A DNA stretch of 64,000 nucleotides from Lobosporangium transversale (taxonomy: Eukaryota), in NCBI RefSeq assembly GCF_002105155.1, contig NW_019029021.1:186001-250000 (forward strand), written 5' to 3'. Shown one piece after another: positions 13,487 through 37,900 of the stretch; within the stretch, counting starts at the first letter, position 1; every line of letters begins with the position of its first letter. A program made the translations under genes and the position numbers. The notes below the pieces were generated by a model. That model worked only from the letters and a program-made list of their open reading frames with translations, had not been told where the DNA came from and searched no databases.

Positions 13487-15022
13487 TTAATATTGGTTAG
13501 TGGATATGTTATGCTTTTTCAGCAAAGTAGCTACACTGCTCTCGTTCAGATCACCAAGCACGCATTCAAGGTTTGGCCAATTGTTCACCATCCATTCCGC
13601 ATCCTCAAGCTGTATTCTCTGGTGTTTATCCCTTTCAAAACTCAGCGAACGTAGTCTCTTCAGATTGGCTAGTTCATCCAGACCTGATTTTAATCTCAAG
13701 TCTAGCGACCGCCTATATACACCCCTTGAGGCCCACTCTACTTCAAAATATGAGTTCCAATCTGCTAGATCAATATGTTCTAGCTGTGTCAACTTGCCAA
13801 GTCGTCTAAAGGCAATGCGTGTCTTTGTCATGCCTTCTTCAGTCTCTTGATCAACATCTACCTTAAGATCGATAGCCAGTTGAGTCAACCCAGTACAAAC
13901 CCATTCTGCTCCTTCGATAATCTCTGTCACCGTAATACTAACCCCAACCAGGCTTTTCAATCGCGGACAGTTTGATAGAATAGTCTGAGCAAAACCGGAG
14001 CGTCTATTCAACTTCAATGTCTCGACGGTCTCACAGAGCCTCCAGAGTCTAGTCTTTTGTACTAGTTGTCCACTATCCATCACCTCTTGCTTGTCAGCTA
14101 GCAATTCCTGTAAAGTGAGCTTATCAATTAGACCATAAGGGGCGCATAACCGTTTTAATTTAGTCATCCGCCTGAGAAGTGTTGCCATATCCTTGTCATA
14201 GATTAGCATATTGATAGATAGATCTGATAGATTACTCAGAGTCCAAGGACGCTGGTGATGTACTACCCTGTAGAATTTTGCTTGAGCAGCTGGGTCTCCC
14301 TCGGAGTAGTTGCAAATATTCAGTGAACACAATGCTGGACAATTCTTAACCAACATCCCGAGACAATACCAGCCAGTGGACGAGAATCGATTGTTGACTA
14401 TCGAGACATTATGAATACGCAACGTGTGTATATTTGGGAGAAGATATTCGCTGTCGCCACTACTCATGAAGTTAATAGGTGGCTGAAAGGCTGCATTATC
14501 CAATTCCAAGTGCCTAACTTTTTTGCAGACTTGAAGGAATAAGTCGGTTGCAACTTCGATATCTACGTGATAAACCTCCAAATGGTTGAGGTTGGTGCAT
14601 TCCAATAAAGCTTTCCACAGCTCTAGTGAAGCTTCTATTGCGGTCAAGTGAAAGCTAGTGATGATGGAGCTGCGAACCTTGATCTGGTTGACAAGGTGGA
14701 TCGGTTTAGGCCATTTACATCTCTTTCCATATGTAATGGACTTGAGGCCCTGTAACTGCCCATACATCTTTGGGAAGGAGGCTCTGAATGTGTAATCATT
14801 AAATATAATCTCTTTGATGTATCCCTTATGCTTATATATTGTTCTACCAGTAGGATTTCTGCTCGATGTGATAGTGATCTCTCTCCATACGAGGCCGATA
14901 AAAATCCTATGAAAATTCTTGGAGACGCGGATACAGCTTAGAAGATCGCTTCGGTCGAGCGACTCGCCAATGAGTAAGAGGATTTCCGGAATCTCCAAAG
15001 GATTTAACTTAAGACTGTCCAT
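13487..15022 (-). CDS. F-box / LRR (RNI-like) protein, copy A, intronless, 511 aa (an upstream in-frame ATG at 15055 gives 522 aa)
   Basis: N-terminal NPLEIPEILLLIGESLDRSDLLSCIRVSKNFHRIF...VW is F-box-like. It is followed by LxxLxL/I repeats (LNHLEV, VRHLEL, IHTLRI, LCSLNI, LSDLSI, CPRLKSL, WVCTGLTQL, LGKLTQLEHIDL, GLDELANLKRLRSL, WMVNNWPNL) typical of the expanded Mortierellaceae F-box/LRR family. Confidence 0.88.
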   Translation of the reverse strand: MDSLKLNPLEIPEILLLIGESLDRSDLLSCIRVSKNFHRIFIGLVWREITITSSRNPTGRTIYKHKGYIKEIIFNDYTFRASFPKMYGQLQGLKSITYGKRCKWPKPIHLVNQIKVRSSIITSFHLTAIEASLELWKALLECTNLNHLEVYHVDIEVATDLFLQVCKKVRHLELDNAAFQPPINFMSSGDSEYLLPNIHTLRIHNVSIVNNRFSSTGWYCLGMLVKNCPALCSLNICNYSEGDPAAQAKFYRVVHHQRPWTLSNLSDLSINMLIYDKDMATLLRRMTKLKRLCAPYGLIDKLTLQELLADKQEVMDSGQLVQKTRLWRLCETVETLKLNRRSGFAQTILSNCPRLKSLVGVSITVTEIIEGAEWVCTGLTQLAIDLKVDVDQETEEGMTKTRIAFRRLGKLTQLEHIDLADWNSYFEVEWASRGVYRRSLDLRLKSGLDELANLKRLRSLSFERDKHQRIQLEDAEWMVNNWPNLECVLGDLNESSVATLLKKHNISTNQY

Positions 15023-15159
15023 GTTGCTGTTGATGGAATGTGGGAATGGAGGCATGGAAGTGAAAAAAAAGGCGTGACTGGATTTTGCTTAGCACTGAGC
15101 AGTAGTAACTGTTAAACACCATTGTATGTGACACAAACTTTGAGCAGGATGCATTCTAT

Positions 15160-15738
15160 CAACTACCCATCTTTCGCATCATTGATGATTACAACAAATA
15201 TATGGGTGAGGTTAATATCGCAGACCAACTTCGTCAATACTACACTGCTCAGATGAGTGCAGAGTTGTACTTGGGTGCCGCTCTTCTTGTGGCTATTAGA
15301 CACAGGTATCGTCAATTCATACATAGTATAGCGTACCAATAACAAATCGACGAGGAAAGACGGACATCGTCGGTTTCGCTTGAATCTTGTAAACCAACAC
15401 CTATCACTCTCCAGCCCCAAGTTGTCATCAAGTAAAGGCACTCAAAAAGGGAATTTGAAGCTGAGGAATACCCTGAAATTACTATCAAGATATCAAAAAA
15501 GCAAATACATTACTAAAAACAACTCTACTCCAAATCCTCACCGACATCTATTGGGACTTCATTACCTAGTAAGAGCTGAAAGAAGCGAAGACAGGGGTAC
15601 TAAAGGCAGGATGACATGCGTCAACTGTAGGCTCAAGAGTCTAAATGAAGGCAAGGAAACTACTTCTCGGACAGAACGGAGCTTACGTTACATGCAAAGT
15701 CTTTCTTAGGACAGAATTGCTTTAAGGAGCATCATACC

Positions 15739-15740
<2 letters not shown>
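15160..15740 (+). mobile_element. Degenerate piggyBac transposase fragment (C-terminal DDE region and Cys-rich tail)
   Basis: Translates as LPIFRIIDDYNKYMGEVNIADQLRQYY, then after a frameshift TWVPLFLWLLDTGIVNSYIV*...HRRFRLNLVNQ...CVNCR...VTCKVFL...NCFKEHH. This matches the piggyBac DYNxxMGGVDxxDQxxxYY...LLDxxxVNSYI motif and C-terminal zinc finger, with frameshifts and a stop. Confidence 0.85.
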
Positions 15741-15771
<31 letters not shown>

Positions 15772-15784
15772 TTCAGGATATGGA

Positions 15785-16120
15785 TTCTTGGCATGAGAAT
15801 TCTGGCAGTGACACAATGCCAATAGTAGCATTCAAGGAACCATTGCGTGCTTTTTATTTCAACGCTACGAAAGAAATTGCTTAAGGAAAAGAAGTAATAG
15901 TAAGGAAAAGAAGAAAAAGGAATTGAGCGAAGGTGAGATTTGGTTTTCTCTTTAGCTATACCACATTCTGCATAGCGCAACTAGCAACCACAGAAATATA
16001 TTTTTTCACGCAATGGTTTGTAAATAGTATTGTAGCAACTTTAATCACCTTCACTAAGACCCTATCATGATCATTCTTAAGCGGATGGATGACACATGTC
16101 CAAGGATCCTTGTCCCCCGT
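15785..16120 (+). repeat. Diverged direct copy of the F-box gene 3' flank (13070-13450)
   Basis: tcttggcatgagaattctggcagtgacacaatgccaatagtagcattcaaggaaccattgcgt aligns with tctggcaagagaattctggcggtgagacaatggtgataggagcgttccaagaacaactgcgt. Similarity continues through agaagaaa..gga, ttggttttctctttagcta and aaggatccttgtc. Confidence 0.75.
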
Positions 16121-16747
16121 CCATTCTTTTTCTCGGACAACGAATATACTGTGTAACTTTAGGAACTCATATTTCGCATGGCACCCTGTAGCTCTTGAGT
16201 ACTGGCATAAACAGATTCTGTAGGTTGGCTAGTTGATCTTAGTCTCCAGTACGATGTCATTGTTATTTTTCTGGCTAGACAGTATTTACTTCATCTCGCT
16301 CTCTCTTTTTTTCTTTTCTTTTTTTCCTCTTCAGCTCTCACTGCTTGCACTTGCTGCAACAAAGGCAACAAGAGGGCGTCTTCGAGATGCTGTCCGAAAT
16401 GAACACTGACGTATTGATATCGATCGTGTTTTAGGGCCTGCTCGGACTGAGCGTAAGCGAAATCAGCATTGCCTTGACATCGAATCTGCTTTCAACGCAT
16501 CCTATGCTTGTCATGGTTATCTATGCCCCTCAGTCCTAGTGCAGAAGGCGTATTCCACTTCAACACAATAGAGGTGCCTTCGAGTGACTGCTTTCGTTTT
16601 AGAATCTATTTCCTCTAGCATTTTCAGCTCTTCAGCTTCTAGCCACTCCTTTTTTTTACACAGCATACTTCTCATAACTTCTTGTTGCAAGGCTTAAAAA
16701 AATAAAACGAACTTCTACGACCACTCACAATTGTTCACATTTCAGTC

Positions 16748-19471
16748 ATGGTTGAAAACTTGCTTCATGTTGTTGGTGCATGGGGTGTATTTGGCATCAT
16801 GGTCGCTGTAAGAGAAACAAAGCTGCCACCACTATAAAAGCAAAATAAAAAAAAACTTCTTTGTCGCAAGGCTTTAGATACCCCAGTGGGAGAAGACATG
16901 GTTGTGGAAGCCTTTAGTCTAATAATGACACATTATCCAATGTAATTCACCACCCCCAACGCCTTCTTTAGATTCTACTCGGTTTCTCCATATTTTTCAC
17001 AGTATACTATTCCAGCGCAAGAGACAGAGAGCCATTCGCTATGATCATCACCATCCTTGCTCTTACACTCTGTCTCTCAACTGTTACCCTCTTTCCAATT
17101 GACATCTTCTTGGTCTCGCGGACTTTGGACCCTGCAACAGGGCTTAGACGTCCCTGGGCTACGGACGAAGTTATAGCCAGCATGCAACTTGTCGTAAGCG
17201 TCGTCTACTATGGTAAAGACACAAACGTGCAGTTTTTTACTTAATCATGTCGCAACAAGTCGCCTTCATGCAGTGAGAATGGAATGGATAGACAGATCGG
17301 TTCTGCTCCTGCTCCTCGTGAAAGCGCAGTTGAATGTTTTGTAAATGAAACTCAGCTCTTTCAATGGTTTCTTTACTTTAAACATTGATAAACAATATTA
17401 ACAAAATACTTGCACTTGATTATCGTGCACCAATTTTTTTTTTTTTTTTTTTTTTTTTGTTCAACGACTTTATGCCAAAAATAATGATTATGATCGTGCG
17501 ACCTTGGAATAATTCTGATGGTCATGATGACGGCTTTGTATATACTTTCTTGGCGCGCTATAGTCGCATATGGCCTGATTGCAAGCTTCTGCTTTTTTTG
17601 GATCCCACTTGCATATTTCTACTTTGAGGAATTCGAAGAGGACCAAACAGTGCAGCGACGACTGATGGCCTCTCTCAAGTACACAGCCTTTTTTATCGTC
17701 ATTGCCTGTATTTTATTGGTGACAGGTCTATTCATCAAGCCCAATGATCATGATAACAGAGATCTTGAATGGCTTCGGAAAATACTAGCTGCTTTGGGTA
17801 AGCTGTTTATGGTTTGCATAATAGTTAGTGGAAAGATGCTCAACCTCATTCTCACGTCACTTCGTCATCTGAAATCACTCCAATGATAGCCCACATTACT
17901 AACCATCATCTCTTTTCTTTCTCTTTGTCGGCTGGGCTGCATTAGATGGACCTGGTGCGCTCGCGTTTGTCGCAGGAGTGTTGTCCATTATCGGGATGTT
18001 AGTTCTTGTCTTTTACACGGTATGCAATGCAGAACCATCATCCACTAGAGTGTTTCAAATCAGTCAATTCATAGCATCTTGGTCGCACAAATTAATTCAT
18101 TTCTTTTATACTCTAGGCACCAGGACTTTCCTTGCTACCTATGCATCTATTAGCTGGCTACCAATCCATCTCAGCAAAGGTCAATGAAACTAATGCAGAA
18201 TTAATTGCGAATAGAGAACGACTCAACGCCATCAGGAACCGTTATCCCCCTACAAGCAACTGTGAGATTTCAGAACGTGATCGTCTTGCGATCAATGAAC
18301 TTGAAAGAGAGGAGCTGATCCTGGAGAGCCGGTCGAGAATGGTGCAGAGGACTAGAGATAGTTGGGCAAACAAGTGTCATTGGATTGTCCGGCCATTTGA
18401 GATTGTATTGGGACTTGCAGCGACAACCCTTACTATACTGCTGATCACGTCTATCGCCATCACAACGCTTGATAACCTGAAAGAGGAGGGCTGCGGAGCT
18501 CCATGTGGATATATTCTGACACATCCAAACCTCCCTAATCCTCTCAACTTACTTTTCTTGGAACTGTCTCCAGTGAGTAACCGATAGACACTCAAGGTCG
18601 ATTACATATGTGTTACTCAGCTCAGCTCAACATATACTAACACTAACCTTTTATGCAACACTAGTTCTTTCCTGTTGACTACATCTTAATGTTAATGATC
18701 ATTCTCTACATGTTCTGGGCCACTACCAAGGGCATCATATCCATCGGTATTCGATTTCTATGGGTTAATTTGTACAAGTTCCGAAGAGCCGCAACACAGC
18801 CACAAGGCTTGTTAGCAGCCACCATGCTCCTGATGCTTAGTCTTACAGGAATGTACTATTCACTTACTATGACTGTTGCCCCTGATTACTCAATGTTTGG
18901 TAGTCAAAAATATGTAAGTCTATCGTAAAGTGTTTCAGAAATAGCGAAAGACATAGGCCAGATGAATCCTTGAAACTAACATTAGTCTTTGATATAGTGC
19001 AACCACACTATCACTAATTCAACTAGAGACTGCAGCGACTATCCTACATTGATCATTCCATGCCATATTGGTGCTCCTATTGAACTCTGCACTCCAACTG
19101 TCACTTCATCAATTGTTTTGAAGATTATTCTGGGAACACCAGGACTTGGCATTGCATTCTATTACACTCAATGGCTACTCTTACTCGTATTCGTAGGAGC
19201 TCTAGTATTTAATCTAGTACAAGGTTGCAGACATGGATTTGGAGTAGATCCTGCTCTGGAAGACGGGGAAGATATGGATGATATCGAATCTAGGGGCCTA
19301 TTGAGCGCCATTGGAGCAATGAATGCAGATGGAGGAAGGAGAAGAGCAGGACGACGAGGATTGTTAATCCCAGGAGAAGGCTATGGATCTATCCAAACGA
19401 CAAGACAGGGATCAGATCCTACTATCCCTACTTATCCATCTTCACCGGGAACTGCGACGAATATTCCTTAA
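16748..19471 (+). CDS. LMBR1-family membrane protein, LMBD1-like lysosomal cobalamin transporter (multi-exon)
   Basis: From ATG 16748 (MVENLLHVVGAWGVFGIMVA), exons give LFPIDIFLVS, FFWIPLAYFYFEE, SLKYT, FYTAPGLSLLPMHL, CGAPCGYIL..P.LPNPLN, VFPVDY, GIRFLWVNLYKFRRAATQPQGLL, APDYSMFGSQKY and CHIGAPIELCTPT, all characteristic of LMBRD1 homologues. Confidence 0.88.
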
Positions 19472-19637
19472 GAATGGCAATCGCTTGAATAACCTGGAAG
19501 CCCCAGCATGCACTTAAAAAATGGGCATTTTAACAACTTGACTTCAGACCTCTTTAATCCATGTTGCGGATAAACAGAAGTATTTTCATATATAGTGCTC
19601 CCATTCATTAGTGATAATAATAAAAAAATGTAAATAG

Positions 19638-21075
19638 TTATCTTTGCTTTGCATTCAGTAGTTTGCTCAAGATTCGATCCTCTAATTCTTGTAACCGGTG
19701 ATCAATTGTGGTCATAATTCGAGCCTCCATCTGAGCAAGGTCCGCCTTTGTTGCGTAGACAATTTGCTCTTTGGCGGTTTTGTTTGTAGCAGGCTCTGAT
19801 GGCATAGTATCTGAAGATGAGATATCATGAGCAGATATCGATAAAGGTTGAGAGGCCGGACCAGATGTTATTGCTGTGCTTGTCAAGTGTCCCTGGTTTT
19901 GGATAGTTGATGACAGTTGATGGTGCTCCATTACTCTCATTAAATCTTTAGCCCCTTGTGGTAAACTATCAATCTGCATCTGGCCCATCAAGGCTTTGAC
20001 TTTTTCAAGATCGATTCCGGAGGCGTTGTGGTCATTCCTTGATACTAAAGAAACTCTAGAGTTTTCTAGTAGGAAAGGAAGAGGAGGAAACACGTTTGAT
20101 ACTAATCCTGACGTTGCTGCCATTGTTGTTTCTGAAGAAGGTGTTGGTAAAGAATCTGCAGTTGATGCTGTTGAAGCCGCAACGGCTGATGATTCATCTT
20201 GTTGGAGTAGTTTTCCCTGAATCACCAGCCAATGCAAGTTAAGACTTGAACCTTGCGATTTGGGGACAAAAAACTGAAGAATGTAATATCTTTGAGTTGA
20301 CTGCTAGTATGTTCCCTAACGTTTTTTTCTTTTTCTTCTTTTTCTTTTCAGTCACCTTGAACAACAGATCACGACATTTTCGCGGGTAGTCTTCATTAAC
20401 TTTTATCCTGAATAACTGAGGCTTCATTCGATTATTAAAAGTTGAAGAAGCTAGGCTATCGGGGTTACCAGGTAATGGGTCTCCTCGGAAAGTACCCACA
20501 TAGTCTCCAGAAGAGTACAACTCCACCGTTCTAGCACTGGACAGAATTGTTATCGCACTGTATGTAAACGCTAAAGCGTGTCGTACGTTTTTTTGAAAAC
20601 GGTGTCTGAAGGCGATGGCTAGAGTCTTTGAGGGCTCGACAAACTTGCAGACAGACTCTTGAACACTCAAATGTTCTTCCACAATCTGATCGTGATCTTC
20701 AGAGCCAATTAGCGGCAAATCGGTCTCCTGAATAGAAGAGACTCTTAATAAGCGCTCTACAGGCGACAGCTGCCGTATTTCTTTGTCTTTGTCATTTTTT
20801 AAGTACATTGTCTGACTTATTGAGCTCCAGTCCAAGGACCCTGAATTTTGCAAGGCCCAATCCGGGCTCGGTTCATTTTCCTAAAAGGAGAAAGAGGATG
20901 AGCGATATTAATGCAATAAACACGATAAACGTTGCGCAACGTTCGATTGCCTAGATATGTATTCATTCAGTACACACATTGGACTGTATGAGCCTCTTAC
21001 CTCTGAAAAATGACACACATTTCGAATGCTTCCATCACCATTGTAGATTTGGTTGGCATAAAAGTGAAATGCCAT
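19638..21075 (-). CDS. PAAT / C10orf88-like protein (3 exons)
   Basis: Exon 1 from ATG 21075 (MAFHFYANQ...CHFSE|gtaag), then ORFs 20239-20853 and 19638-20237. ITILSSARTVELYSSGDYVGTFRG, IDLEKVKALM...LPQGAKDLMRVM and a C-terminal IDHRLQELEDRI coiled coil parallel the PAAT motifs as recalled (ILSSARNMEVY...YCGTSRG; IDLDKVQ...GAQQLM). Confidence 0.7.
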
Positions 21076-21752
21076 TCTTTTTCTCTTCTGTTTTTTTTTT
21101 TTTTCTTTTTTTTTCTTGATGGTACTGAAGTACTGAAGCATATTGAACGTGGAATGGAACTTGAAAGGGTATGGTTTTAGAAGCATTGGCATCCAAGCCA
21201 CCAAGATGAACAGAAACAGACAACAGTGCAGATTGGATTGGTTTCTTTTCACTCCCACGGTGCACTGTTTCACAAACTAATGTGCCGCCTCTACAGATAG
21301 CCGCTAAGGTGGAGACACATCAGTAAACCATGGGGCACTTAATCAAGAGATCGAAAGGGGAAGAATATAGACTGACAGGGCAAAGATGTTTGTAAGTGTA
21401 TATTGATGGTAAATCGAATAAACACTCCATGTATGAGCAGCTAATCTTATGAAGAGAGCAGACGGAAATCCTAAACCCCCCTGGCATTTGTATAAATGAG
21501 TAAATGAGTTCAGATCTGCTTATCAGTCTATAGGCTGGTAATGTAAAAATAGACTTCTGAATAGCATGGTTCCCAGCCTATTCCTGTTCCTGTTTCTCTT
21601 ATCCTTGCTCTTTATTCATCCATCCTTGTCTCTCTCATCCACCATCCTCTTCTCATCTCCTGATTGGTCTGTGTTGTGTGTTGTCCTTTTCTACTCTCAA
21701 TAAGACCACTTCTCCCTACTCTTACTTATCAACTATAGCCATCCTTTTAAGA

Positions 21753-24269
21753 ATGGTCACTGCTACTGCTGCCACAAGTGTGCCACCCCTTTGCCAGCCT
21801 CACTTGTACCAACCAGCAAAACCAAAGGATCAATCTGCATCAGCTGCATCAGCTGCAGCAACACCTGTCCACAGAAACCAAGCTCATCAAGCTTCACAAA
21901 TGCAACATCAGCAGCAACAACAACAGATCTCTACCGCTGATGTTCTTTTCGAGACCCCAGGTCAACAAAATAATGACAGTATACCATTCTTCAATGATCA
22001 TAGTATCAGTAATGGGACTAGTATAGAGAATCCATTGATGGTGCATGTCCAGCAGCTTCCAACGCCAAGGACCTCCTTCTCTTCTGGCGGTGCTTCCCCA
22101 CCAGAGAACCTTTCGCCTAGCTCTCATCCTAACGTATACCACACTCTGCAGCAAACGCAGCAATCTCGCCTCACACCAACCTCTTTGGCCTCTACTGCTT
22201 CTTCACCTTTTTCAAGTCCTGTACCCACATTACCGAGCACAATTGCTTCAACTCCTGTCTACGATGACAGCCATATCAATGGCTTGAGCCTTTCAGGCAA
22301 TACACCAATATCCTCTTTACCAAAGTCGCCATTGTCGACTAGCCATTTGTATCAACCACAGTCTTATCCAGCTTTGCGTTCGACCTCGCCTGCCTTGAGC
22401 TCAACACTGGGTCCCTCCTTGCATGATCCCTCGACGTCTAGCAGCATCACACATGGCCTCAATGCCTCTTATCCTACTGGATCAAACATCTATCACATGG
22501 GGGGTACCTCCAATACGCTTGGTAGTCGTCCACCAAATCAAACACAATATCTTAACGATCAGCACCAATTCCGGATGCAGCAACAGGAGCAGCTTTACCT
22601 GGATGACGAAAAAGAGCAACTAAAGAAGAATACTCGATCTGCGCTCAATGGTGTAGCAACGTTTTTACCTCCAGCGTTGAATCAAGGTCTCAGCAAGGTG
22701 GTCTATTCTGCTCAGGAAGCCATTTCATCAACCAACAGTAAGCTGTCCTTGCCTTCAAGTCGCTCTTCCATAAATGGTTCGTCATCATCGACCGCAACAG
22801 GATTGAGTATGAATGCTAGCTCAGTTCGAGGCGTTTTGCTCAGACTTTACAGAAGCAGCAAATTGCCTTTGCTTTGCCTATTATGGTATCTGTCCTCGGC
22901 AGTGACCAACAATATTGGCAAGCAGATCATGAACCAATTCAGATACCCCGTTACCCTTACATTTGTACAGTTTGTGTTTGTGTCACTGTTCTGCTTTATC
23001 CTTGGATCTGTGTTCAAGATGACAACGATCCGTAAGCCCACGATGGGCATTTTGCAAATGACCGCACCTTTAGTTGGATTTCAGGTTGTGGGACATATGT
23101 TCTCCAGTGTGGCCATTAGCCGAGTCCCACTGAGCTTTGTGCACACAATTAAGGTGAGCAAAGCAACAACAACAACAACAACAAAAAAAAAATACACCCC
23201 TTGTGCATTATCAAGAATAATTATCAAGGGGTGCCTGATAATGATGAAATGAAGACGCAACATTGCATGGTTCGCAGGCTTGAGCAAGGGGGTTTGGACT
23301 AGAAAAGGCTATCGCTTCCATCGGCAGCAATCAAACCATAATCGGGGACTGTCCATTATGGGTTGAATGCATGACCCTCCTTTATTATTTTTTTTATTCC
23401 TCAATAATTACACAATCCACTGACAAAAAAAAAAATTGTCTTTTACAATGATTTAGGCGCTTTCACCATTATTCACGGTTATATTCTACCGTGTTATTCT
23501 TGGAACGACCTATAATAGAGATGTTTATATCTCACTTATTCCATTGACTGCAGGAGTAATGCTCGCTTGTCGTCTTTCACTGGAGTTTAACAATCTCGTT
23601 GGTTTGGTGTGTGCTCTTGCATCTACACTCGTTTTTGTGACACAGAACGTGTTTACGAAAAAGATCTTATTCAGCAATAAGGCGAAACAAGAGAAGCTTG
23701 GAGGACTTGGAAACAAGGAGGTTACCAAAGAGGATGATCCTGTGGAGGACATTGGAACGAACGCTCAGAAGCTCGATAAGATCAACATTCTATTCTACTC
23801 ATCCACCATGGCAGCCATTTGTATGATCCCTATATGGCTCTATGCCGAAGGCGTGGGACTTTTGTTCCCAGAGGAGACTGGTGTTAATCATGCTGTATAC
23901 TCATCTAACTTTTGGGGTATTGCCTGGTTGTTGTTCCTGAACGGTACCTCACACTTTTTCCAAAACATCTTTGCATTCTCGGTCCTGGCCATAACCTCGC
24001 CCGTGACATATTCGATTGCATCATTGGTCAAACGTATTGTGGTGATTGTGGCAAGTATCATCTATTTCCATCAAACACTTGGGGCGACGCAATGGACGGG
24101 AGTGTGTCTAACATTCTGGGGTCTGTGGCTATACAATTCGGCCAAAAATTCAGCCAAAGTCCGTCCTGTAGGAGGTATTCTGGCCAGTGCCAACGTTGGT
24201 CGGGGAGGCAGCCGTAGCTTTGGACGAGGTCTGCTGGATACTGACAGGAAAGCAGGCTTTTTGGCTTGA
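21753..24269 (+). CDS. Triose-phosphate transporter family (SLC35E1/Sly41-like) with long S/P/Q-rich N-terminus (2 exons)
   Basis: CLLWYLSSAVTNNIGKQI..FRYPVTLTFVQF, FQVVGHMFSSVAISRVPLSFVHTIK | ALSPLFTV, QNVFTKKI, KLDKINILFYSS, NGTSHFFQNIFAF..SPVTYSIASLVKRIVVI. Intron ~23154-23456. Confidence 0.92.
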
Positions 24270-24625
24270 ACGTCGACAAGTTTAACAACAGTATTTAATA
24301 TTTAAGTAATGTTTTTAATATAATTTGCTTCATAAGCGCATTCATACCATTGGCATTATTATTATTATTATTATTATTATTTTTATTTTTATCTTGTCTC
24401 AGTAAAGCAAGTAGATTTTAAAAAATAAACCCCGGCATAGAACCTTTTTTTAATTGGCAGGAAAGAATAGAGCTCAGTTGGCCTCCAATGGGGTGTGTGC
24501 GATTGGATGTGGCCAGGGACAGAAAGGAGGGCAATGATTGGGCGGGAAGTGAAGGAAGAGGCAGTGAGGCACAGCAATTGGATAAAAGGGCGATAAAGTG
24601 AAATATATACATGTTAGGTATAAGA

Positions 24626-24775
24626 TAAATATATAGATAAATAGATAAATAAATAGATAAATAAATAGATAAATAAATAGATAAAATAACGGTTGACATG
24701 GCGATAAGGGTTGACATTGACATGGGGCTCTAAAGTGGAAAGAGAGAGAGAGAGAGAGGGAGAGAGGGAGAGAGA
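24626..24775. repeat. Simple repeats: (ATAAATAG)n-like and (AG)n
   Basis: atagataaatagataaataaatagataaataaatag at ~24630-24685 and an AG run at ~24740-24775. Confidence 0.85.
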
Positions 24776-25002
24776 AGATGGTCTCCATAATTCATCTAAA
24801 AATGTCGCAAAGGTAACATCAGACACACAGAATGTTGAGAAAGGACTGTGAGAAACTTTGTAAACATCACAGGGCTGTTGGTCAATTTCTTTAATCTTAT
24901 TTTGGAACCTTGATTTTTGATTTGCAGTCATCTCTCTTTTCTTTTGCTTTCCTTCTTCCTATTCTTCCACTTTCTTTTTCTTTTTCTTTTTCTCTTTCTT
25001 TT

Positions 25003-25042
25003 TCTTCTTCTTCTTCTTCTTTTTCTTCACCTTCTTCTTCTT

Positions 25043-25071: not shown

Positions 25072-25074
<3 letters not shown>

Positions 25075-25807: not shown

Positions 25808-25838
<31 letters not shown>

Positions 25839-28800
25839 TTTTTTTTTTTTGATGTCCAGGACAGTATTACTGAAATGACATTGGAGAAAAGAGCAGTGTC
25901 AACTACATCACTCTTTGACCAAAGAAAGCTTTTTTTGCACAGCAACAGTCATTTTGCTGGAATATTTGGAAGGATCTTTGGCCTTCATTATCAACAATGG
26001 TCATACATTTTTTTTTTTTTTTACTAAATACTTTCGCCCAATGAAAAAACAAGGCACGGGTGGCATCACATCAAAAGCCAAAAGTCAAAAGTCAAATGCA
26101 AACGAGGTCTTTGTTGACACATATTAGCCGAATAAGGGGACAAATACAATCATATTGCCTTTAACTAACAGTCTTTCTTTCTTTCTTTCTTTTTTTTTTC
26201 CTCCTTTTCTCGTTTCCTGTTATTTTTTCAATTGATCATTGGTCTCGTCCTTGTGATCCGGGGGGGATGTGAATGATGATCTTTCACCCACTTGATGCTC
26301 ACTGACCCTGTCCACGCCTTTTAATTCTGGCCAATCCCAAATCAACTTTGTATTACAATGACTCTCCCCTACAAATTTAAATTTGGGTCCATTTTTTTTT
26401 TTTTTTTTTTTTTTTTACATCATGCCTCGGTGTGTGTAACGAATGCATGCAATACCAATACTTTTTCCATCGGAACATTTGGGATAACGGGATTCTTCAA
26501 TTCCTAATTTCTCTAAACATGAACATCAACAATATTTGCAAACAATAGTTGTCATGAAGATGTATACCAACATGACCAACATCATCGTCAGACTCTCATG
26601 TGGACCTGAATGTGATCAGAATTCAATCTTGCTCAACTCGCACTACGACACTACGTTGGGATCACCAGGTGCTGTTGATGATGCCCTTGGTGTTGGTGTC
26701 ATGATGGAAATCATCCGTGTGATGTCCCAGCGACCCGCTCCAAAGAAGAACAGTATTGTTTTTTGTAAGTATTCTTTTTTTTTTTTTTTTCTCTTATACC
26801 TTGCTTATGTAAGATAGACTATGCTTTCTGCTAACAAATAATTCCTTATCAAATTTGAAAAAAAAAAAAAAAAAAAAAAAAGTGTTCAACGGAGGTGAAG
26901 AGTCATTACAGGATGCATCCCACTCGTTCATCACTGCACATGAACTTAAGGATCAAGTGAGAGCTGTAGTTAATCTGGAGGCCTGCGGAACTTCCGGGCC
27001 TGAAATCCTCTTCCAAGCCAATTCACGCACAATGATCGATGCCTACAGAACTGTCCCATATCCCCATGGCACCGTCCTTGCCAATGATCTATTTGCGACT
27101 GGGCTCATTCTCTCTGACACAGACTTCCGTCAGTTCGTGGATCATGGAAACTTAACAGGACTTGATATGGCAGTCTATAAGAACAGCTACCTTTACCATA
27201 CTCACTTGGATCTGGACTCGTACATGGAAACAGGTCTACCCCAGCACATGGGTGAGAATACCCTGGCATTGGCTACTTATTTGACTGAGGAGGCAGAGCT
27301 CATCAATTTGGAAAAGACCAGCAGTGTGGTCTTCTTTGACTTCTTCGGCCAGTTCTTTGTCTCATATTCTTGGTCGACTGCATTACAGATTCATATTGTC
27401 GTTGGAGGACTCGCATTATTGGCCATGGCCACTCAAGCCTCGCGCCCAACCCTGCGTGCGACTGTCTCTATCCTCTTCTCGTTTATGGCGGCTCTGATCC
27501 TTCCTAACCTGTCAGTGATCTTCCTGTTGTCACTGGGCAAACCCATGCAATGGTTCTCGCACGAGTGGCTATCCTGTCTTTTGTTTGGACCTATTGCTCT
27601 TGTTGGCATGTTCTCGGTCCAGTACCTCTTCCATGATAAAAAAGCGAGCACAGGTGCGAACGAACTGAGCACGTTCTCTGCGGTGCATGCGTTCTACACC
27701 ATTTGCTTGGGCCTTGCTTCGTATACAGGACTCGCCTCCAGCTACGTCTTTGCGCTCTATTCGATCAGCTCAACTCTAGGCCTATTCTTCAACAAGTTCC
27801 GCATTGCTGAAGCCAAGAAGGATGGTGTAGAGTCTGCACGCGTGGATTATATGACCTACTTTGTTGCCTCGTTGTTGCCTACAGCCTATTTTTCGTTTGT
27901 CTGCTTCAGCTTGTTGGATATTTTCATCCCTCTGACTGGTCGCATTGGTGTAGATGCCCCCGTGGATAATATTGTTGCAGTCCTGACTGGCTTTATTATA
28001 TTTGTGTTCTGTCCTCCCATCATGGCATTCACCCATCGGTTCGGAGCCTCAATGTTGCGCAAGATGATTGTCCTGTTGCTTGTGGCCCATTTGGCGATCT
28101 TGTTGATCACATCCATGTTCATCTCACCCTATAATGAACTTCATCCAAAACGTGTCTTTGCTCAGCACCTGAAGAACTTGACTTCTGGAGAATCGATGAT
28201 GTATATTGCGCACGCAGATCCAGGTCCCTTTTATGATCCCTATGTGACTGAGCTCGAGGAAATGTTTTCAACCAAGGCTGTCTTCCGCAGCCCCAACAAC
28301 AACCCTGGAGACTGGAATGCCATCTATCCATTCAACCAATTCTTGGAATCTTATGTGATCGACACGACACCCTATATCAAGACCCAGACTCAAAACAAGA
28401 CGATTGCCAACACAGATAGACCATTGACCGACTTTGTCCATCAGGCGCCTCAGCTCATTGCCGAGAAGGTTTCGTATGATCCCAAGACGGGTCATCGTAG
28501 GTTGACGGTGTTATGTACCCATCCAAATTATATCTGGACTGTGGCCAGCTTTGATACACATTTGGTATCATGGTCATTATCGTCGTCGGATCCATTTCCC
28601 TATCATTCTCATTATGTGATTCGACATGTGGGTGGTCATGTTAGTGACGGATGGAAGTTGGACCTGGAATACAAAGCCAAAGGACCGGATGACAAGTTGA
28701 TGATTGAGTTGACAGCAATGGAGACTGAGGGATTTGGAAGAGACCAGGAAAGAGAACTGATTGGAAGCGGCGATATTGGTGTTATGCGCAAGGTCTTGAA

Positions 28801-28864
28801 GACGCGACCAGCATGGTTGGCGCTGACGTATTTTGGCACAACCGTGAGTCGGTTCCATCTGTAG
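25183..28864 (+). CDS. Membrane metallopeptidase, M28 family (ERMP1/Fxna-like), 3 exons
   Basis: IGYRVVGT, YTNMTNIIVRLS, ILLNSHYDTTLGSPGAVDDALGVGVMMEIIR, FNGGEESLQDASHSF, VNLEACG..GPEILFQ, GLILSDTDFRQF, YLYHTHLD, multiple TM helices and HPKRVFAQH. Introns 25781-26548 (GC-AG) and ~26765-26882. Confidence 0.95.
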
Positions 28865-29269
28865 AGGAAGAGAAAAAAAAAAAAAAAAAAAAAAAATAGA
28901 GAAAGGAGGGAATGAAAGGAAAGAAAGGGAAAAAAGGGAAAGAAAAAAAGAAACTGTCTCCCTACTTTCTTTCCACATATCCATGCTACCCATACGCTCT
29001 TGTATTTTTAAATTACCAATAAAGGTCGATCAATTCTTCTTTAAGTGTCAACATGCATGCAATGTACATGTACACGCACGTACAAACTTTAAAACGAAGT
29101 TGATACCTGGGCCGAGTACGTGTCCTGGATATAAACCTTATTGTGGGATCGTGGGAAGTTTAGGCTACTCATCCTTATTCCTTTTCTCCCACACTCCATT
29201 CTCTTTCTCTCTCTCTCTCTCCACTCATTCAACACCCAATTTTCATTGCCATTACCGGTGCTCTTAACC

Positions 29270-29661
29270 ATGTTTGCCAGATCATTCCTTCAGAGAGCTA
29301 GCACTCGTTTGCCGAGCTTGGCTTCAACTGCTGTATGACATTATTACATGCTTTTTTTTTTTTTTTTTTTTTTGCATTGACATTTTCATCAGTATACAAT
29401 TTATGCAAGATCCATTCTTTGAAAAAATAAAAAATAAAAAAAAAAATTTACTAATAACAATTCCTTCTTATCACCCTTTTCACAGCGCACAGCAGGCGTG
29501 CGTGCTGGCTCTGTCCGCTTCATTTCATCTTACAATGCCCATGTGGCCGGTTTGACGGATGAACAAAACGAGTTCCGTTTGGCTGTCCACCGGTTTGCTA
29601 ACGAGGAGCTTGCTCCTCGTGCCCATGATATTGACAAGAAGAACGAATTTCCTATGGTAAA

Positions 29662-29701
<40 letters not shown>

Positions 29702-30955
29702 TAATTGCTTCATTGGAGTTTTTGCGCAGCTTTGTAATTTATGAAAACTTTATCATCCCTTCTTATTTATTTTTATTTTTATTTTTGTTTTTATAATAAA
29801 TTATAGGACATGTGGAGGAAGTTCGGTGATATGGGTCTCCTTGGTATCACTGTCCCCACTGAATATGGTGGTCTTGGACTTGGATATTTGGAACACACTG
29901 TTGCCATGGAGGAGATTTCTCGTGCTTCCGGATCGGTTGCTTTGTCATATGGTGCTCATTCTAATCTTTGCGTCAATCAGATCAACCGCAACGGAACCGA
30001 TGCCCAAAAGAGGAAGTTCTTGCCCAAGGTAAACAACAAAAATGAGTTTTTGTTTTGCGGGTTACTTTTATCGTCATTATTATTAATCGTATTAAGTGTA
30101 CTAATTGTTTTTTTTTTTTTTTCTTTTTTTCTTTTTTTATAGCTGATTTCTGGCGAACATGTTGGTGGTTTGGCCATGTCTGAGCATACCTCTGGATCAG
30201 ATGTCGTTTCCATGAAGCTTCAGGCAGAAAAGAAGGGTGACAAATATATCCTCAATGGTACTAAGATGTGGATCACCAATGGTCCTGATGCTGATACACT
30301 TGTTGTATACGCCAAGACTGACATCAAGGCCGGACCCAAGGGTGTCACAGCCTTCCTCATTGAGAAGGGCATGAAGGGATTCTCTCGTGGCCAGAAGCTC
30401 GATAAACTGGGTATGCGTGGCTCCAACACGTCTGAGCTCATCTTCGAGGACTGTGAAGTGCCTGAGGAGAACGTCTTGGGAGAGATTGGAAAGGGAGTGT
30501 ACGTGCTCATGTCTGGTTTGGACTATGAACGTTTGGTATTGTCAGGAGGACCTCTTGGTTTGATGCAGGCTGCTTTGGACATCACCCTTGACTATGTCCA
30601 TCAGCGCAAGCAGTTCAACCAGCCCATCGGAGAATTCCAGTTGATCCAGGGCAAGATTGCAGACATGTACACCAAACTGAATGCCTCCAGATCCTATGTC
30701 TATGCCACAGCCCGTGCCTGCGATAATGGACATGCCTCCAACCGAGACTGTGCCGGCGTGATCTTGTACTCTGCCGAACGTGCAACAGAGGTTGCATTGG
30801 ATGCCATCCAGTGCCTTGGAGGAAATGGATACATCAACGACTTCCCTACTGGCAGGATCTTGAGGGATGCTAAGCTCTATGAGATTGGTGCTGGTACCTC
30901 AGAAATCAGGAGGATGTTGATCGGACGTGAGTTCAACAAGGAGTACAAAAATTAG
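29270..30955 (+). CDS. IVD: Mitochondrial isovaleryl-CoA dehydrogenase (4 exons)
   Basis: Presequence-like [14 protein letters not shown], then [76 protein letters not shown] and [36 protein letters not shown]. Confidence 0.96.
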
Positions 30956-31101
30956 AAGAAAAAAAAAAAAATAGTAAATAAATAAATTTATAATAAGAAA
31001 AATAGAATGAAGAGTTTTACGATTTACATTATCCGGGATATTTATTTTAATTATTTTGTTCTGTTCTAATTTCAAACTAAACTGAGAAAAGTCCACCCCT
31101 T

Positions 31102-32118
31102 TCATTGCGAGATAATGATGGGCGGTCTATTGGCCTTGTTTCTTTGAACGCGCAAGAATAACCAGTCGACAGCTTCCTTCACTCCTGTGCCCTCTAATGC
31201 TGAAATGGGCAACACTCTTGAATCACGAGCCCCGAGTCGCTCTGCAATCTGATTAAAAATCTCTTTGATTTGTTCAAGCCTTAAAGCTGTAGGCATATCT
31301 TGTTTATTTGCCAACATAAGCACAGGGACTCCCTCCACTGTGTCATCCATAATTACTTTTTCTAATTAAATGAAAAAGAGATAAAAATAGATAAATATAT
31401 AAATAAATAAAAATTAAATCCTAATAATGTGTAATATAATAGCAAAGTAGAATAGTATGATCATCGTAAATGTTGTTTTCGTTTTCGTCTTTTTTAATTA
31501 CCAAGAGCATTTTTACACTCCTCGATACGCTCTGGATCAGATGAGTCTACAACAAAGACAATGGCATGACATTCCCGATAATAACGTTCCCAAATGGATT
31601 GTAAATCAGTCTGTCCTCCAAGATCCTGAAAATTGATTCTAGCGCCTCCAATGTCAATTCTTCCGACTATATAAAAATAAAAATAAAAATAAAAAAAGAT
31701 ATGTTAAGAATAATAGTATTAATGGAAGATCAATATGATGTTGCAAATATCGAATAATCCCAGTTTTGAAGACATACTGTTCAATCCAACTGTTGGGGCG
31801 ATTCTTTCTGGTGGTAATCCTGGTACTCCAAGGAATATAGATTTAATCCTTTCTAGTAATGTCTTTTTTTTTTTTTTTTTTTTGTAATAAAATAAAATAA
31901 AATTAGTCCTTCACATATTGATAAAAGTAAAAAAAAAAAAAAAAAAAAAAGCCGCAAGTATTCCATAATGATCAAGAATAAAGAAAAAAAAAAAAAAAAA
32001 GATACATAAATGAAAATGGCGTTACAGTCTTTCCAGCATTATCGAGCCCAATAATAACAATATAATATGCCTCTCGTCGTGTAAGGTGCTTGTAGAGTCC
32101 ACTTAGAAACGTATACAT
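31102..32118 (-). CDS. ARFRP1: ARF-related small GTPase ARFRP1/Arl3 (4 exons)
   Basis: MYTFLSGLYKHLTRREAYYIVIIGLDNAGKT | TLLERIKSIFLGVPGLPPERIAPTVGLN | ...QDLGGQTDLQSIWERYYRECHAIVFVVDSSD | VPVLMLANKQD...ISALEGTGVKEAVDWL. Confidence 0.92.
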
Positions 32119-32514
32119 CGTAAACGAATAAAAATAATATAAAACAAAAAAAAAAAAAAGTAAAGGTAATTGCCACTACTTTCTCCTGTTGACACCTCGT
32201 TTTTTTTTTTTTTTTTTTTTTTTTCTTTCTCCTTTTCGCAGATGGTCCTATTGTTCCTGACAATGAATGAGAACAGATGGACCCGAAAAAAAAATAAGAA
32301 ATGGAGTTACAATGAATCTATTTAAATCACGTGAATATCACACAAAATTATTTTCACAGTTTGGTGAGCTTGGCAATGTTTCATCCAAGGCCAACTTTTT
32401 GAAACGGTATTATGATACTCCACACGAACATAATGTGCTCCGAAGAGACAACGACTAGAGTGAAGTCAACTAAAAAAAAAAAAAAAAAAAAAAAAGTAAT
32501 AATGATTGCTCTTA

Positions 32515-33160
32515 CATTTCCCATTTTCCTTCACATAATACACTCTGGGAATCCCAATAAATAGCCGCATCAACCTCTTTAACAACGCAAACTTTCTCAT
32601 TGATCGCTAGAGTCTTTATGTTCGTTGCAATTGAGCTGTATGTCTAGGTTTCTAGGTTATCCAACCTTTTTTCAGGTGACTGTACTCTTCTATCGTGAAA
32701 TCCAAGAGGTTCTTGCCCCCGCAATCTCGGAAATCTATACATGAGGAGCCAGTGCTCCTCCGGTAAACTAAAGTTCTCCGGCGCGCTGGAGCGATGTTGT
32801 TGCTGGGCATTTTAACGCCTTATCTAATTTTTATTCTATTAACTCATTTATTATTTACCAATCGGGATGTTTTGTGAATCCACAGGAAGGAAAGTTTCTT
32901 TGTGCAAAGGCCTTTCATTAGCTATTGGCGAATCCCCCTTGGCATCACCAAAAACTACCACAGTCATGCCTGTAAAAAGACAGTATAAAGACTAAAGAAT
33001 CTGGCTCCAAGAAAGCCCTTAGTCTTTCGCAGTGCAGTCTTTTTCTAGCTTATCTTTTCACATGCTAGTTCCCTTCTACTTTCAAGCCCTAGACTCTCGG
33101 TGATTCAGTCTTTGAGCTTACTTATAAAGCTCTCTTCAGTCTTTTGGACATCCTATGGTA
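32515..33160. repeat. Diverged copy of the ~0.65-kb dispersed repeat (same orientation as the 37075-37775 copy)
   Basis: Shares ggaaatctatacatgaggagccagtgctcctccggtaaactaaagttc and the ttaactcatttattatttaccaatcggg block. Its 32567-32728 part is the reverse complement of 45407-45568. Confidence 0.9.
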
Positions 33161-34915
33161 TTCTTTGTCATTAAGATCATTTGCTTTTTATTCTCCTTGT
33201 CACGTCTGACAACAATCCAGTTTTTTTATTTTTTATTTTTTTTTTTTCCTTCACTGGGCGAACAATACACCAGTGGTGATATGGTGCACTATATCCTCGT
33301 CTCTTTTCATCTGCCCTGGGCACTAAAACGAGCAAACTTGACTATTTAGTTTCCTTCAACGCATGGAAAGTGTTGAAAACAACTGACTATTGGCTTGTCA
33401 CTCGAACGAGACCACAGCTATAAAAAACAAAGCACCAAGTACCTGCTTCTATTTCCTGCCTCCTTCCATTTCTACCTCCTCGCTGGCCTCTTTTTGCTCG
33501 AGGTGTGCTACCAAGCCTTTATACTAGTCTAAAGATCCATGTCATTCGAGTTACTCCTTTTTTCTTTTCTTTTTAATCGACTGATAGCAGACCCCTGGTC
33601 CTTGTCTCTAACAGCAACGGTACTAGTTCGAATCACTAGAATGTGGAACTAATGGCAGCCATAGTTATCCCGCTTGTACGCGTCACTCCCGCTCCAACCA
33701 CACAACTCCCTGGGATCGCCAAGGCCAAACTACCGTCCTAGACGCGTGGGATATGCCTTGCGCATAATGTTATCTCAAATACGATTTGATATACCCAAAC
33801 CTATCAAGGCAGCAACAGGGCTGCGAGAGGTTTCCTCTGACTGCGAGGCCGATCCTCGCCTCGCAAAAGTGCGAGTGAAACAGCCATAGATTTTGTATTC
33901 TCGAGATAACAATACCTGTTGCTGTTCACATGAATATTTGAGCTATTTCCGTCTTGTTACAGACCAATATACAATTATTATCTTAATACTCAACTCTTTT
34001 TAGCCAGCGAATATATATATTTTTTATCTCTTTTAAAGACATCTTTACCTTGGTCTGATCTACTGGTTACAGGGTACGTAGTTTATCTGCCAGTGAGGCA
34101 AGACGTCCCTATCCTTCACATTCAGCATTGGCAGGCTCCACTCCTTAATCGATGAATACAACTACACCGCAAGCGAATTTCAGACCATGAATCGCAGATC
34201 AAGTGATACACTGGCCTTGACACGCTCTCCGATGAAAACACTTACATGTCATCTTGGATCACATTAGATTCATGGGCTCATGCCACAGGCTTCATAGGGG
34301 AGAATCTTCTTATACCGTCAGTTTGGTGCCGCGCCCTCGCCAGCGAGAAGAGATCTGCCAAAAGTTGGTGTAATAACCAAGCGACAACGCACTAAGTATG
34401 GTAACAAAAAGACTTCTTTGAAGGAGAAACCCCATTCAGACAAGTTCCTCTTGACCTCCCTAATAACTTTACTGAAGCGGTTTTGAGTTCCAAGTTTAAC
34501 TTGTTACTAAAGCGTTGATTATTTTGTAGGGATTAAAAATTATATAATCGATATCCAATGTCAAGCAACAAGAAAGCTTTCTTTCCATAGATGAGGAGTG
34601 GACTGAGGCCAAGCACTAGAGTTAATTCGTGTTGTCTCTGCCTCCAAAAACTACTCTTGGGCATCTGCTGAAGGGTAGATAAGCAAACTATTAGTCGACA
34701 GCCGGTTGTAGGTATGCTTGCCATCGGAAGTCCAAGGTCCCTGTAACTAATTCTGAGGGTCTTTCGGGCAGTGACCACTGCTTTCGGGTATGGTTAGGCG
34801 CAGTGGCTTTTATTATGGAGTGAAATTAACAAATTGGATTTGTTGAATGTGCCGCAAAGTCCCGTCGCCATTTGTGCATCCACGTCTCATTACCCTCCAT
34901 CGACTCCATTTCTTC

Positions 34916-37900
34916 GCAACATGGACAGTCTTAAGTTAAATCCTTTGGAGTTTCCGGAAATCCTCTTACTCATTGGCGAGTCGCTCGACCGAAGCGATCT
35001 TCTAAGCTGTATCCGCGTCTCCAAGTATTTTCATAGGATTTTTATCCGTCTCGTATGGAGAGAGATCACTATCACATCGAGCAGAAATCCTACTGGTAGA
35101 ACAATATATAAGCATAAGGGATACATCAAAGAGATTATATTTAATGATTACACATTCAGAGCCTCCTTCCCAAAGATGTATGGGCAGTTACAGGGCCTCA
35201 AGTCCATTACATATGGAAAGAGATGTAGATGGCCTACACCGATCCACCTTGTCAACCAGATCAAGGTTCGCAGCTCCATCATCACTAGCTTTCGCTTGAC
35301 CGCAAAAGAAGCTTCACTAGAGCTGTGGAAAGCTTTATTGGAATGCACCAACCTCAACCATTTGGAGGTTTATCACGTATATACCGAAGTTGCAGCCGAC
35401 TTATTCCTTCAAGTCTGCAAAAAAGTTAGGCACTTGGAATTGGATAATGCAGCCTTTCAGCTACCTATTAACTTCATGAGTAGTGGCGACAGCGAATATC
35501 TTCTCCCAAATATACGCACGTTGCGTATTCATAATGTCTCGATAGTCAACAATCGATTCTCGTCCACTGGCTGGTATTGTCTCGGGATGTTGGTTAAGAA
35601 TTGTCCAGCATTGTGTTCACTGAATATTGGCAACTACTCCAAGGGAGACCCAACTGCTCATGCAAAATTCTACAGGGTAGTACATCACCAGCGTCCTTGG
35701 ACTCTGAGTAATCTATCAGATCTATCTATCAATATGCGAATCAATGACAAGGATTTGGCAACACTTCTCAGACGGATGACTAAATTAAAACGGTTATGCG
35801 CCCCTTATGGTCTAATTGATGAACTCACTTTACAGGAATTGCTAGCTGACAAGCAAGAGGTGATGGATAGTGGACAACTAGTACAAAAGACTAGACTCTG
35901 GAGGCTCTGTGAGACCGTCGAGACATTGAAGTTGAATGGACGCTCCGGTTTTGCTCATACTATTCTATCAAACTGTCCGCGATTGAAAAGCCTGGCTGGG
36001 GTTAATATTACGGTGACAGAGATTATCGAAGGAGCAGAATGGGTTTGTACTGGGTTGACTCAACTGGCTATCGATCTTGAGGTAGATGTTGATCAAGAGA
36101 CTGAAGAAGGCATGACAAAGACACGCATTGCCTTTAGACGACTTGGCAAGTTGACACAGCTAGAACATATTGATCTAGCAGATTGGAACTCATATTTTGA
36201 AGTAGAGTGGGCCTCAAGGGGTGTATATAGGCGGTCGCTAGACTTGAGATTAAAATCAGGTCTGGATGAACTAGCCAATCTGAAGAGACTACGTTCGCTG
36301 AGTTTTGAAAGGGATAAACACCAGAGAATACAGCTTGAGGATGCGGAATGGATGGTGAACAATTGGCCAAACCTTGAATGCGTGCTTGGTGATCTGAACG
36401 AGAGCAGTGTAGCTACTTTGCTGAAAAAGCATAACATATCCACTAACCAATATTAAAGAAGAAACGAAGAGCATTGTCACATCCTATCCTAACACAGAGA
36501 CAGGGACCTTACACATGAGCCTTTTAGTGCATATCCACTTCCTGAAAATTGCAATACAATCTATATGATGGTGATGATAAGGACCATTGTAGTAATAAAA
36601 ACATTTACAAGAATTACACATTGCAAAAGTAACCTTTACAACCAATGTTTGTGTCAATATGAAAGTGCTTTTTCTTTTATGGCTGCCCAACGAGTTGTGA
36701 TTTAGCTGAAGAGAAAGCCGAATCTCGTCTTCGTTTGAATCCCCTTTCTTCTTTCTCTACTATGGCTTCTTTTTCTTAAACAAGACTTTTCATAGCGTCG
36801 ATATAGAGAGTACGCAGTTGTTCTTGGAACGCTCCTATCACCATTGTCTCACCGCCAGAATTCTCTTGCCAGATATAGTATCAAACTTTTACTTTTACAA
36901 CTATACATCTCGTGTTTGAACACATCAGACATACTCCTTTCTTTTCTACGCTCTGAATGTTTAAATTGTACCGGTAAAACATTACTGAGTGTTCGATAGA
37001 ATGCTAGATGGCCATCCTGCTCAAAAGGAGTTTGTAACCGTGTCTGCACTTGTACGATGGTGTTTATACGGAAGTATTTTCTTATTTCTTCAGACATGTG
37101 CGGTCAACTGAAAAAAGATATTGCAGCTGCGCGAAAGAGCAACGATCTTCACTCCCTCACTTTTCCCATTTCCTCTCACATAATCCACTCTGAGCATCTC
37201 AATAAATAGCCGCATGAACCTCTTTAACAATGCAAACTTTCTTGCTGACTGCTAGAGCCTTTATGTATGCTGCAAATGAGCTGTTCGTCTCTTATCCAAA
37301 CATATTTCATAAAGTCCAAGAGATCTTGCCATGCAGTCATGGAAATCTATACATGAGGAGCCAGTGCTCCTCCGGTAAACTAAAGTTCGCTGGCGCGCCG
37401 GAGCTATGTTGTTGCTGGGCATTTTAACGCTTTATCTAATTTTTATTCTATTAACTCATTTATTATTTACCAATCGGGATGTTTTGTGAATCCACAGGAA
37501 GGAAAGTTTCTTTGTGCAAAGGCCTTTCATTAGCTATTGGTGAATCCCCCTCCCTTGGCCTTGTCAGGAACTTTCACGGCCATGCCTACAAACAGATAAT
37601 ATAAAGAAAGAGTCTGGCTCAAGCAAGCCCTTAGTCTTTCATCCTGCAGTCCTTCTCTAGCTTACCTTTACACATGTTAGTTCCCCTTCTACTTTCAAGC
37701 TCTAGACTTTCAGCGATTCGGTCCTTGTTCTTGCCCATAACACGCTTCTCTTACTTTGTGGCATCCGATGGTGTCCCTTGTAAATTTACCTTTATTTCCT
37801 TCTTTATTTTTCCTTACCCCTCTTTCCCTTAGCGGAGATACACTTACTTTTTACAACAGTCTAGTCTTTTCTTTTATATTTTCTTTTATTCTTTTTTGAC

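Follow-up and report, generated by a model that had tools for sequence, protein, structure and literature searches.

Two recently duplicated F-box/LRR genes in Lobosporangium transversale and the likely diversification of the predicted binding face in their family

We consider a stretch of 64,000 nucleotides of the Lobosporangium transversale genome (contig NW_019029021.1, positions 186,001 to 250,000 of the forward strand; hereafter the window), which carries two intact genes, copy A and copy B, for proteins with an F-box followed by leucine-rich repeats (LRRs). The coordinates of all features of the pair are given in Table 1. Our best explanation, to which we assign a probability of about one half, is that A and B are recent duplicates within a species-level bloom of F-box/LRR genes, the predicted binding face of which is likely diversifying to catch foreign or selfish proteins for degradation.

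Direct comparison of the two open reading frames (ORFs) gives 28 substitutions, which affect 26 codons and change 25 amino acids; all substitutions lie in nt 1-1159 of the ORF, the last difference being nt 1159 itself. The sole purely silent codon is 284 (AGG/AGA), and two more silent steps are found within the residue-changing codons 43 and 301. The substitutions include 16 transitions and 12 transversions of all base types, and neither copy has a stop or a frameshift; an additional in-frame ATG of copy A at 15055 is outside the shared block. A first-pass annotation of this DNA, made from the sequence alone, had reported the same numbers of substitutions and residue changes, their limit at nt 1159 and the intact ORFs; these were recomputed without any correction, and the silent tally and all residue pairs quoted there also agree with our comparison.

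The duplication exceeds the ORF: it is an inverted, gap-free block of 3,239 nt that starts 5 nt ahead of the ATG, upstream of which there is no homology between A and B. The first-pass annotation had reported neither this block nor its identical tail. The divergence of the head is 2.4% and switches sharply to identity at nt 1159, and the final 2,075 nt of the block are identical between the arms. At the missense rate of the head, the probability of zero missense changes in the last 124 codons is 3e-4; the probability that all three silent steps fall in the head is 0.003, or 0.14 if the pure silent change alone is counted. Considering that a change-free tail is improbable at the rate of the head, the tail was most likely homogenised later by recent gene conversion between the inverted arms. 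Two other origins were rejected. A retrocopy does not fit, because the block runs 1.6 kb beyond the 3' end of the RNA described below. Hypermutation or template-driven diversification is not supported either: the changes are of all base types, and the window contains no template repeat, no third family member and no further family fragment.

Four of seven listed sequencing runs were compared; X1, X3 and X4 are DNA from three studies (the window may derive from X1) and X5 is RNA, since three spliced joints present there are missing from the DNA runs. Both 5' flanks were found in 3/3 DNA runs. The tail at 12573-13681 forms a 1.1-kb contig with no other letters at about twice the single-copy depth, again in all three. 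The head contigs of these runs are A/B mosaics (1+22, 14+9 and 16+7 of 23 sites), and a third allele is absent from the contigs of X1, X3 and X4. The contigs of X5, the growth conditions of which are not on record, equal B with no other letters over 34879-36286, including its own 5' flank, and at all 28 differing sites an RNA contig has the letter of B. An A-specific RNA contig was not seen in X5; near-identical copies collapse in contigs, so this is no evidence of silence. Copies A and B are both real, and B is transcribed; the first-pass proposal depended on the expression of at least one copy, and this much is provided by B.

The F-box-like domain PF12937 scores 27.5 and 27.1 bits in the two copies (the cut-off is 24.3), and the Pfam scan of A and B found F-box families only, with no match to an LRR family. 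The AlphaFold2 model of A, built on a 43-sequence alignment, has a predicted local distance difference test (pLDDT) score of 86.8 and contains about 16 strand-helix repeats. Its top Foldseek matches are COI1, TIR1, Dia2, FBXL2 and D3 (E about 1e-8; 13-14% identity, template modelling (TM) score about 0.4), and when solved structures are searched by profile, the top ranks go to TIR1, the F-boxes of KDM2B/2A and COI1. The F-box motif residues are kept across 39 paralogs, and residues 11-43 hold 3 of the 25 A/B changes. In the Skp1-Cul1-F-box (SCF) ubiquitin ligases, to which the proteins of these fold matches belong, the F-box docks on Skp1 and the concave LRR face is the substrate site. A and B are F-box/LRR proteins, predicted to serve as substrate adaptors of an SCF ubiquitin ligase; the F-box plus LRR architecture read earlier from the letters is thereby supported by the domain score, the model, and the fold and profile matches.

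The candidate search gave 49 matches among 7,998 scored, one being the window's own cluster. Forty-three of the 49 bear the name Lobosporangium transversale, with identities of 33-59%, and five are distant; the next closest paralog to A/B is 58% identical. The profile search gave 849 clusters (formed at 50% identity) at E<=1e-30 and 2,784 at 1e-10; ten of the clusters were looked up, and the nine that are named are all from Mortierellaceae. A midpoint-rooted tree was built from 137 of 194 proteins, restricted to lengths of 430-640 aa and cleared of duplicates and gappy rows; it places 39/39 labelled Lobosporangium sequences in one clade of 40 tips with a support of 0.99; most other tips of this tree are unlabelled, and it samples no close sister species. 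Judging from these sequences, A and B belong to a bloom of F-box/LRR genes in Lobosporangium, about 40 of which were sampled. The single clade, the young duplicates and a tandem pair with a broken copy indicate a lineage-specific expansion with birth and death, and many truncated relatives occur within the family lists.

Several side observations concern the family. P0028/P0054 is another very young duplicate, located on separate contigs and identical over 456 aligned residues. P0186/P0194, named from two genera, differ at 11/403 positions, being either a conserved member or close isolates that go by different names. Polymorphism was sought in seven cluster pairs; six proved to be the same genes in two public assemblies, identical save for gene-model ends and one residue and thus with no strain variation, and the seventh is the identical paralogs P0028/P0054. 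A metagenome scan gave one locus out of 70 candidate stretches, 25% identical: positions 784-4035 of contig L001 carry tandem related intronless F-box/LRR genes, the first of them split into several frames. The look-alike clusters of the Atlas are mostly from Mucoromycota, with one from Basidiomycota.

The case is carried by the family rather than by the pair, which by itself is weak evidence. Site rates were estimated from 38 paralogs without A and B, with surface classes defined by motif position and DSSP, not by coordinates; these are protein rates, not ratios of non-synonymous to synonymous rates (dN/dS). The rate is 1.95 at the concave positions x3/x5/x7/x8 and 0.84 in the exposed convex helix, followed by 0.73 in polar loops, 0.67 in the F-box and 0.43 in the core (p about 1e-12). 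The predicted concave face evolves 2.3x faster than the exposed convex helices, and a slow F-box is combined with a fast substrate domain. A second alignment shows a weaker concave excess for the 23 sequences of a sister clade (1.42 vs 1.16); for 35 distant relatives that were sampled, it is clear (1.77 vs 1.11).

Every sister pair of the tree, 43 in all, was also examined. Concave divergence is above the rest in 11/11 Lobosporangium pairs (median ratio 3.0), compared with 5/8 sister-clade pairs (median 1.5; p 0.0003), and it is also above the rest in 24/24 distant pairs (median 2.0). The concave ratio is 0.99 for P0063/P0045, a labelled cross-species pair, and 1.1 for the near-identical P0186/P0194; given the 0.99 of P0063/P0045, the fold alone does not dictate the excess. 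Diversifying substrate recognition in the family is likely, as far as sequence can tell, and the “rapidly diversifying” family of the first-pass annotation agrees with the hypervariable predicted concave face.

For the A/B pair itself, the maximum likelihood codon model gives a dN/dS of 3.3-3.5 at a transition/transversion ratio (kappa) of about 3.2, and the likelihood ratio test against 1 gives p 0.020-0.027; the non-synonymous excess noticed at first is confirmed, though modestly. Counting gives 2.5-3.3, with a one-sided p of 0.085, 0.040 and 0.025 at kappa 1, 2 and 3, respectively, and an exact dN/dS interval of 1.0 to 16.9 at kappa 3; a dN/dS of <=0.5 is rejected (p<0.002). The neutral kappa, taken from three non-coding repeat pairs within the window, is 3.3-4.8.

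Column entropy was calculated from 38 other paralogs, with 5 partial Lobosporangium matches excluded. The changed sites have a mean entropy of 2.36 bits vs 1.66 under neutral placement (p 0.0005). The top entropy quarter takes 13/25 changes with 6.5 expected (p 0.005), and its dN/dS is 5-7 (p 0.004-0.0006). The core leucine positions are hit by 0/22 changes, and the changes are weakly clustered along the head (p 0.07). In our reading against the five closest paralogs, derived residues occur on both copies, so the differences are not the decay of one copy. In sum, the A/B differences are mostly missense, lie off the repeat core and modestly favour the family-variable columns.

A number of points weigh against our explanation. 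Positive selection and a release of constraint on the concave face cannot be told apart by the rate contrast alone. The dN/dS of the pair is based on just three silent events, and p 0.02 overstates the case because the pair was picked for this look. The conserved half of the columns still gives a dN/dS of 1.5-2, and I11F, I155T and Q346H (in B) and L181P (in A) strike strongly conserved columns; taken together, these suggest that constraint was relaxed or that the silent count is low by luck. The changes had been called “radical or charge-changing”, a description that fails: charge-changing ones are 11/25 vs 32% expected for random missense (p 0.14), and the mean BLOSUM score is -0.64 vs -0.41 for random changes, i.e., no more radical. 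Their placement in or just after the LRR strands was upheld in part. Motif positions 5-13 hold 15/22 changes with 7.3 expected (p 0.001), a class chosen after seeing the data and the one post hoc class of the eleven tried; the strict xxLxLxx surface positions are not enriched (6/22 vs 4.3 expected, p 0.25). Nor is a clustering of the pair's changes on the concave face supported: with classes set by motif position and DSSP, the enrichment is not significant (5/64 vs 12/298, ratio 2.1, p 0.16). At the level of domains, A and B match F-box families only, NB-ARC/NACHT being absent from them and from 19 longer relatives, which resemble tandem copies fused into one; the scan of these 19 found no fused defence-type domain above the cut-off. 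Finally, the neighbours of A/B are housekeeping genes.

Two other explanations deserve serious discussion, both of which we consider unlikely. In the first, the same diversifying SCF adaptors act on the fungus's own targets, such as regulators of development or metabolism, partners in vegetative incompatibility or the toxins of selfish toxin-antidote elements. This fits all of the sequence results equally well, and B is expressed in X5. Slowly evolving host substrates would, however, be hard to square with a species-level bloom and sustained hypervariability of one face, and no partner gene lies within the duplicated block to accompany it.

The second, given the same low chance, is relaxed constraint after duplication, with a dN/dS near 1 outside the core and a silent count that is low by chance, for which reason the pair was noticed. 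The counting p of 0.085 without transition bias, the interval reaching down to about 1, the dN/dS in the conserved half, the random-like BLOSUM scores and the four changes at conserved columns all speak for it, as do the A-specific RNA contig not seen and the many truncated relatives. However, a merely neutral most variable quarter would predict about 18 silent changes in the head, against an observed 3 (p about 0.001-0.004). The entropy of the changed sites rejects a fully neutral placement; there is no stop or frameshift, and the absence of a concave excess in the cross-species pairs is left unexplained.

It is very improbable that one of the heads was patched in from an older, third paralog or allele elsewhere, so that the differences were imported rather than selected here. 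The sharp switch from 2.4% to identity at nt 1159, the two double-change codons, the weak clustering and the multi-copy repeats flanking the locus would agree with such a patch, but the next closest paralog is only 58% identical, the three DNA runs are pure A/B mosaics with no third allele, and an older donor should add silent changes, not reduce them. An assembly or polishing artefact, to which the long perfect inverted repeats nearby might point, is hardly credible, being contradicted by the DNA runs (both 5' flanks, both allele sets and the double tail depth in 3/3) and by the RNA contig with all 28 B letters.

The explanation we prefer, diversifying recognition of foreign or selfish proteins, can be laid down as follows. 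The 3.24-kb inverted duplication yields A and B, both of which remain intact and one of which, B, is transcribed. Gene conversion would later have homogenised the distal 2,075 nt, and the first 1,159 nt would have kept their 28 differences, which statistically, if modestly, tend to be missense, avoid the repeat core and favour family-variable columns. The N-terminal F-box is predicted from the fold and SCF biology to dock on Skp1-Cul1, and the concave LRR face to bind the substrate. By analogy, the substrates may be non-self, such as effectors of endobacteria or proteins of viruses or transposons. Chasing fast-changing targets is expected to produce a species-level bloom with a varying concave face, and an immune role of the F-box/LRR family is plausible.

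TIR1, COI1, D3/MAX2, Skp2, FBXL2 and Dia2 share an N-terminal F-box followed by an LRR solenoid. Adaptors of this FBXL class (TIR1, COI1, etc.) occur in one or a few copies and have fixed ligands, whereas the Lobosporangium family is multi-copy and has a hypervariable face. In plant immune LRRs, including the nucleotide-binding LRR receptors (NLRs), exposed residues of the beta-strand face are hypervariable and the leucine core is conserved; the Lobosporangium family shows the same combination, as measured here. Unlike plant NLRs, A and B have no nucleotide-binding or signalling domain, and their output would be ubiquitination.

The closest parallel is found in the Caenorhabditis F-box A1/FTH and the plant F-box families, described as unstable and positively selected (Thomas 2006, cited in PMC12062965 and PMC8665587). 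In the excerpts of these sources, they are alike in having a conserved F-box with a fast substrate domain, species-specific birth and death and repeat-rich surroundings; recognition of foreign proteins by the nematode families is still presented there as a proposal, and whole-gene dN/dS is <1 in 94/95 C. elegans paralog pairs, whereas that of A/B is above 1. The present family differs from the nematode ones in its LRR solenoid instead of FTH and in its fungal lineage, and no common origin is shown. Fungal NLRs are described in an excerpt of PMC5658179 as being without LRRs. Large fast-evolving F-box sets exist in fungi (PMC10282164, PMC10234402), and the excerpts of these two papers give no selection analysis or immune reading. 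Our literature search, mostly of open papers by titles and abstract starts and without supplements, found no description of a Mortierellaceae or Lobosporangium F-box/LRR family and no paper pairing Lobosporangium with F-box, in line with the first-pass remark that the system was not described in this lineage. We believe that the Lobosporangium family is a fungal case of the known diversifying F-box kind, of which the nematode and plant blooms are examples, not found described for Mortierellaceae.

Table 1. Features of the F-box/LRR gene pair, in positions of the window
Feature	Position	Strand	Remarks
Copy A	13487..15022	-	intronless intact 511-codon F-box/LRR ORF
Copy B	34921..36456	+	intronless intact 511-codon F-box/LRR ORF, transcribed
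Divergent head of A (nt 1-1159)	13864..15022	-	carries all 28 substitutions
Divergent head of B (nt 1-1159)	34921..36079	+	sequence comparison
F-box-like domain, residues 12-51	34954..35073 in B; 14989-14870 in A	+ (B)	PF12937
Predicted LRR solenoid, ~16 repeats, residues 46-495	35056..36405 in B; 14887-13538 in A	+ (B)	AlphaFold2, Foldseek
Duplicated block, arm with copy A	11789..15027	-	3,239 nt, inverted with respect to arm B
Duplicated block, arm with copy B	34916..38154	+	sequence comparison
Identical tail, arm A	11789..13863	-	377 nt coding + 1,698 nt non-coding; inferred gene-conversion tract
Identical tail, arm B	36080..38154	+	sequence comparison, RNA/DNA contigs
RNA contigs over copy B	34879..36519	+	run X5; short 5' and 3' flanks covered

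The genes neighbouring the pair are GH81, a TPT transporter, an M28 peptidase, an acyl-CoA dehydrogenase, bHLH and GARS-AIRS. Spliced exons at 31132-31663 (-) belong to a small gene, presumably an Arf-like GTPase by its motifs, which converges on the acyl-CoA dehydrogenase gene. At 33443-34730 (-) there is low-level spliced RNA with two introns and without a long ORF, heading away from the start of B; it is a candidate non-coding RNA from a two-way promoter. Positions 37341-40922 and about 41824-45405 form a near-perfect 3.6-kb inverted duplication around a 0.9-kb spacer, with 3 single-base gaps, no substitutions and divergence in the outer 275 nt alone. It overlaps the tail of B and has a 26-bp tandem array and an extreme strand skew; the runs show further copies elsewhere, and it may represent a non-autonomous mobile element or a hotspot of conversion. 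Both copies of the gene are flanked by older dispersed repeats that are 76-88% alike (13072-13247, 15789-15965, 32511-33192 and 11300-11788); some are direct, their DNA depth corresponds to several genomic copies, and they may seed duplications in the family.

How fungi detect microbes in their hyphae is an open problem, for which a hypervariable F-box/LRR repertoire is a concrete candidate; Mortierellaceae are known for endobacteria. It is tempting to go further and propose, as something possible rather than probable, that Mortierellaceae run an LRR-based intracellular immune repertoire, in which hundreds of F-box/LRR SCF adaptors with NLR-like faces would destroy invader proteins and fill the LRR role that fungal NLRs lack; A/B would then show, at one moment, how selection keeps new specificities distinct in the face of gene conversion. 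Since 25 residues differ on an otherwise identical scaffold, the two copies are a clean pair for testing substrate switching. Should the targets turn out to be endogenous, or relaxed constraint to be the whole explanation, we would be dealing with an ordinary case of F-box family expansion; if the proposal is true, the idea of F-box immunity in nematodes and plants would extend to a third kingdom.

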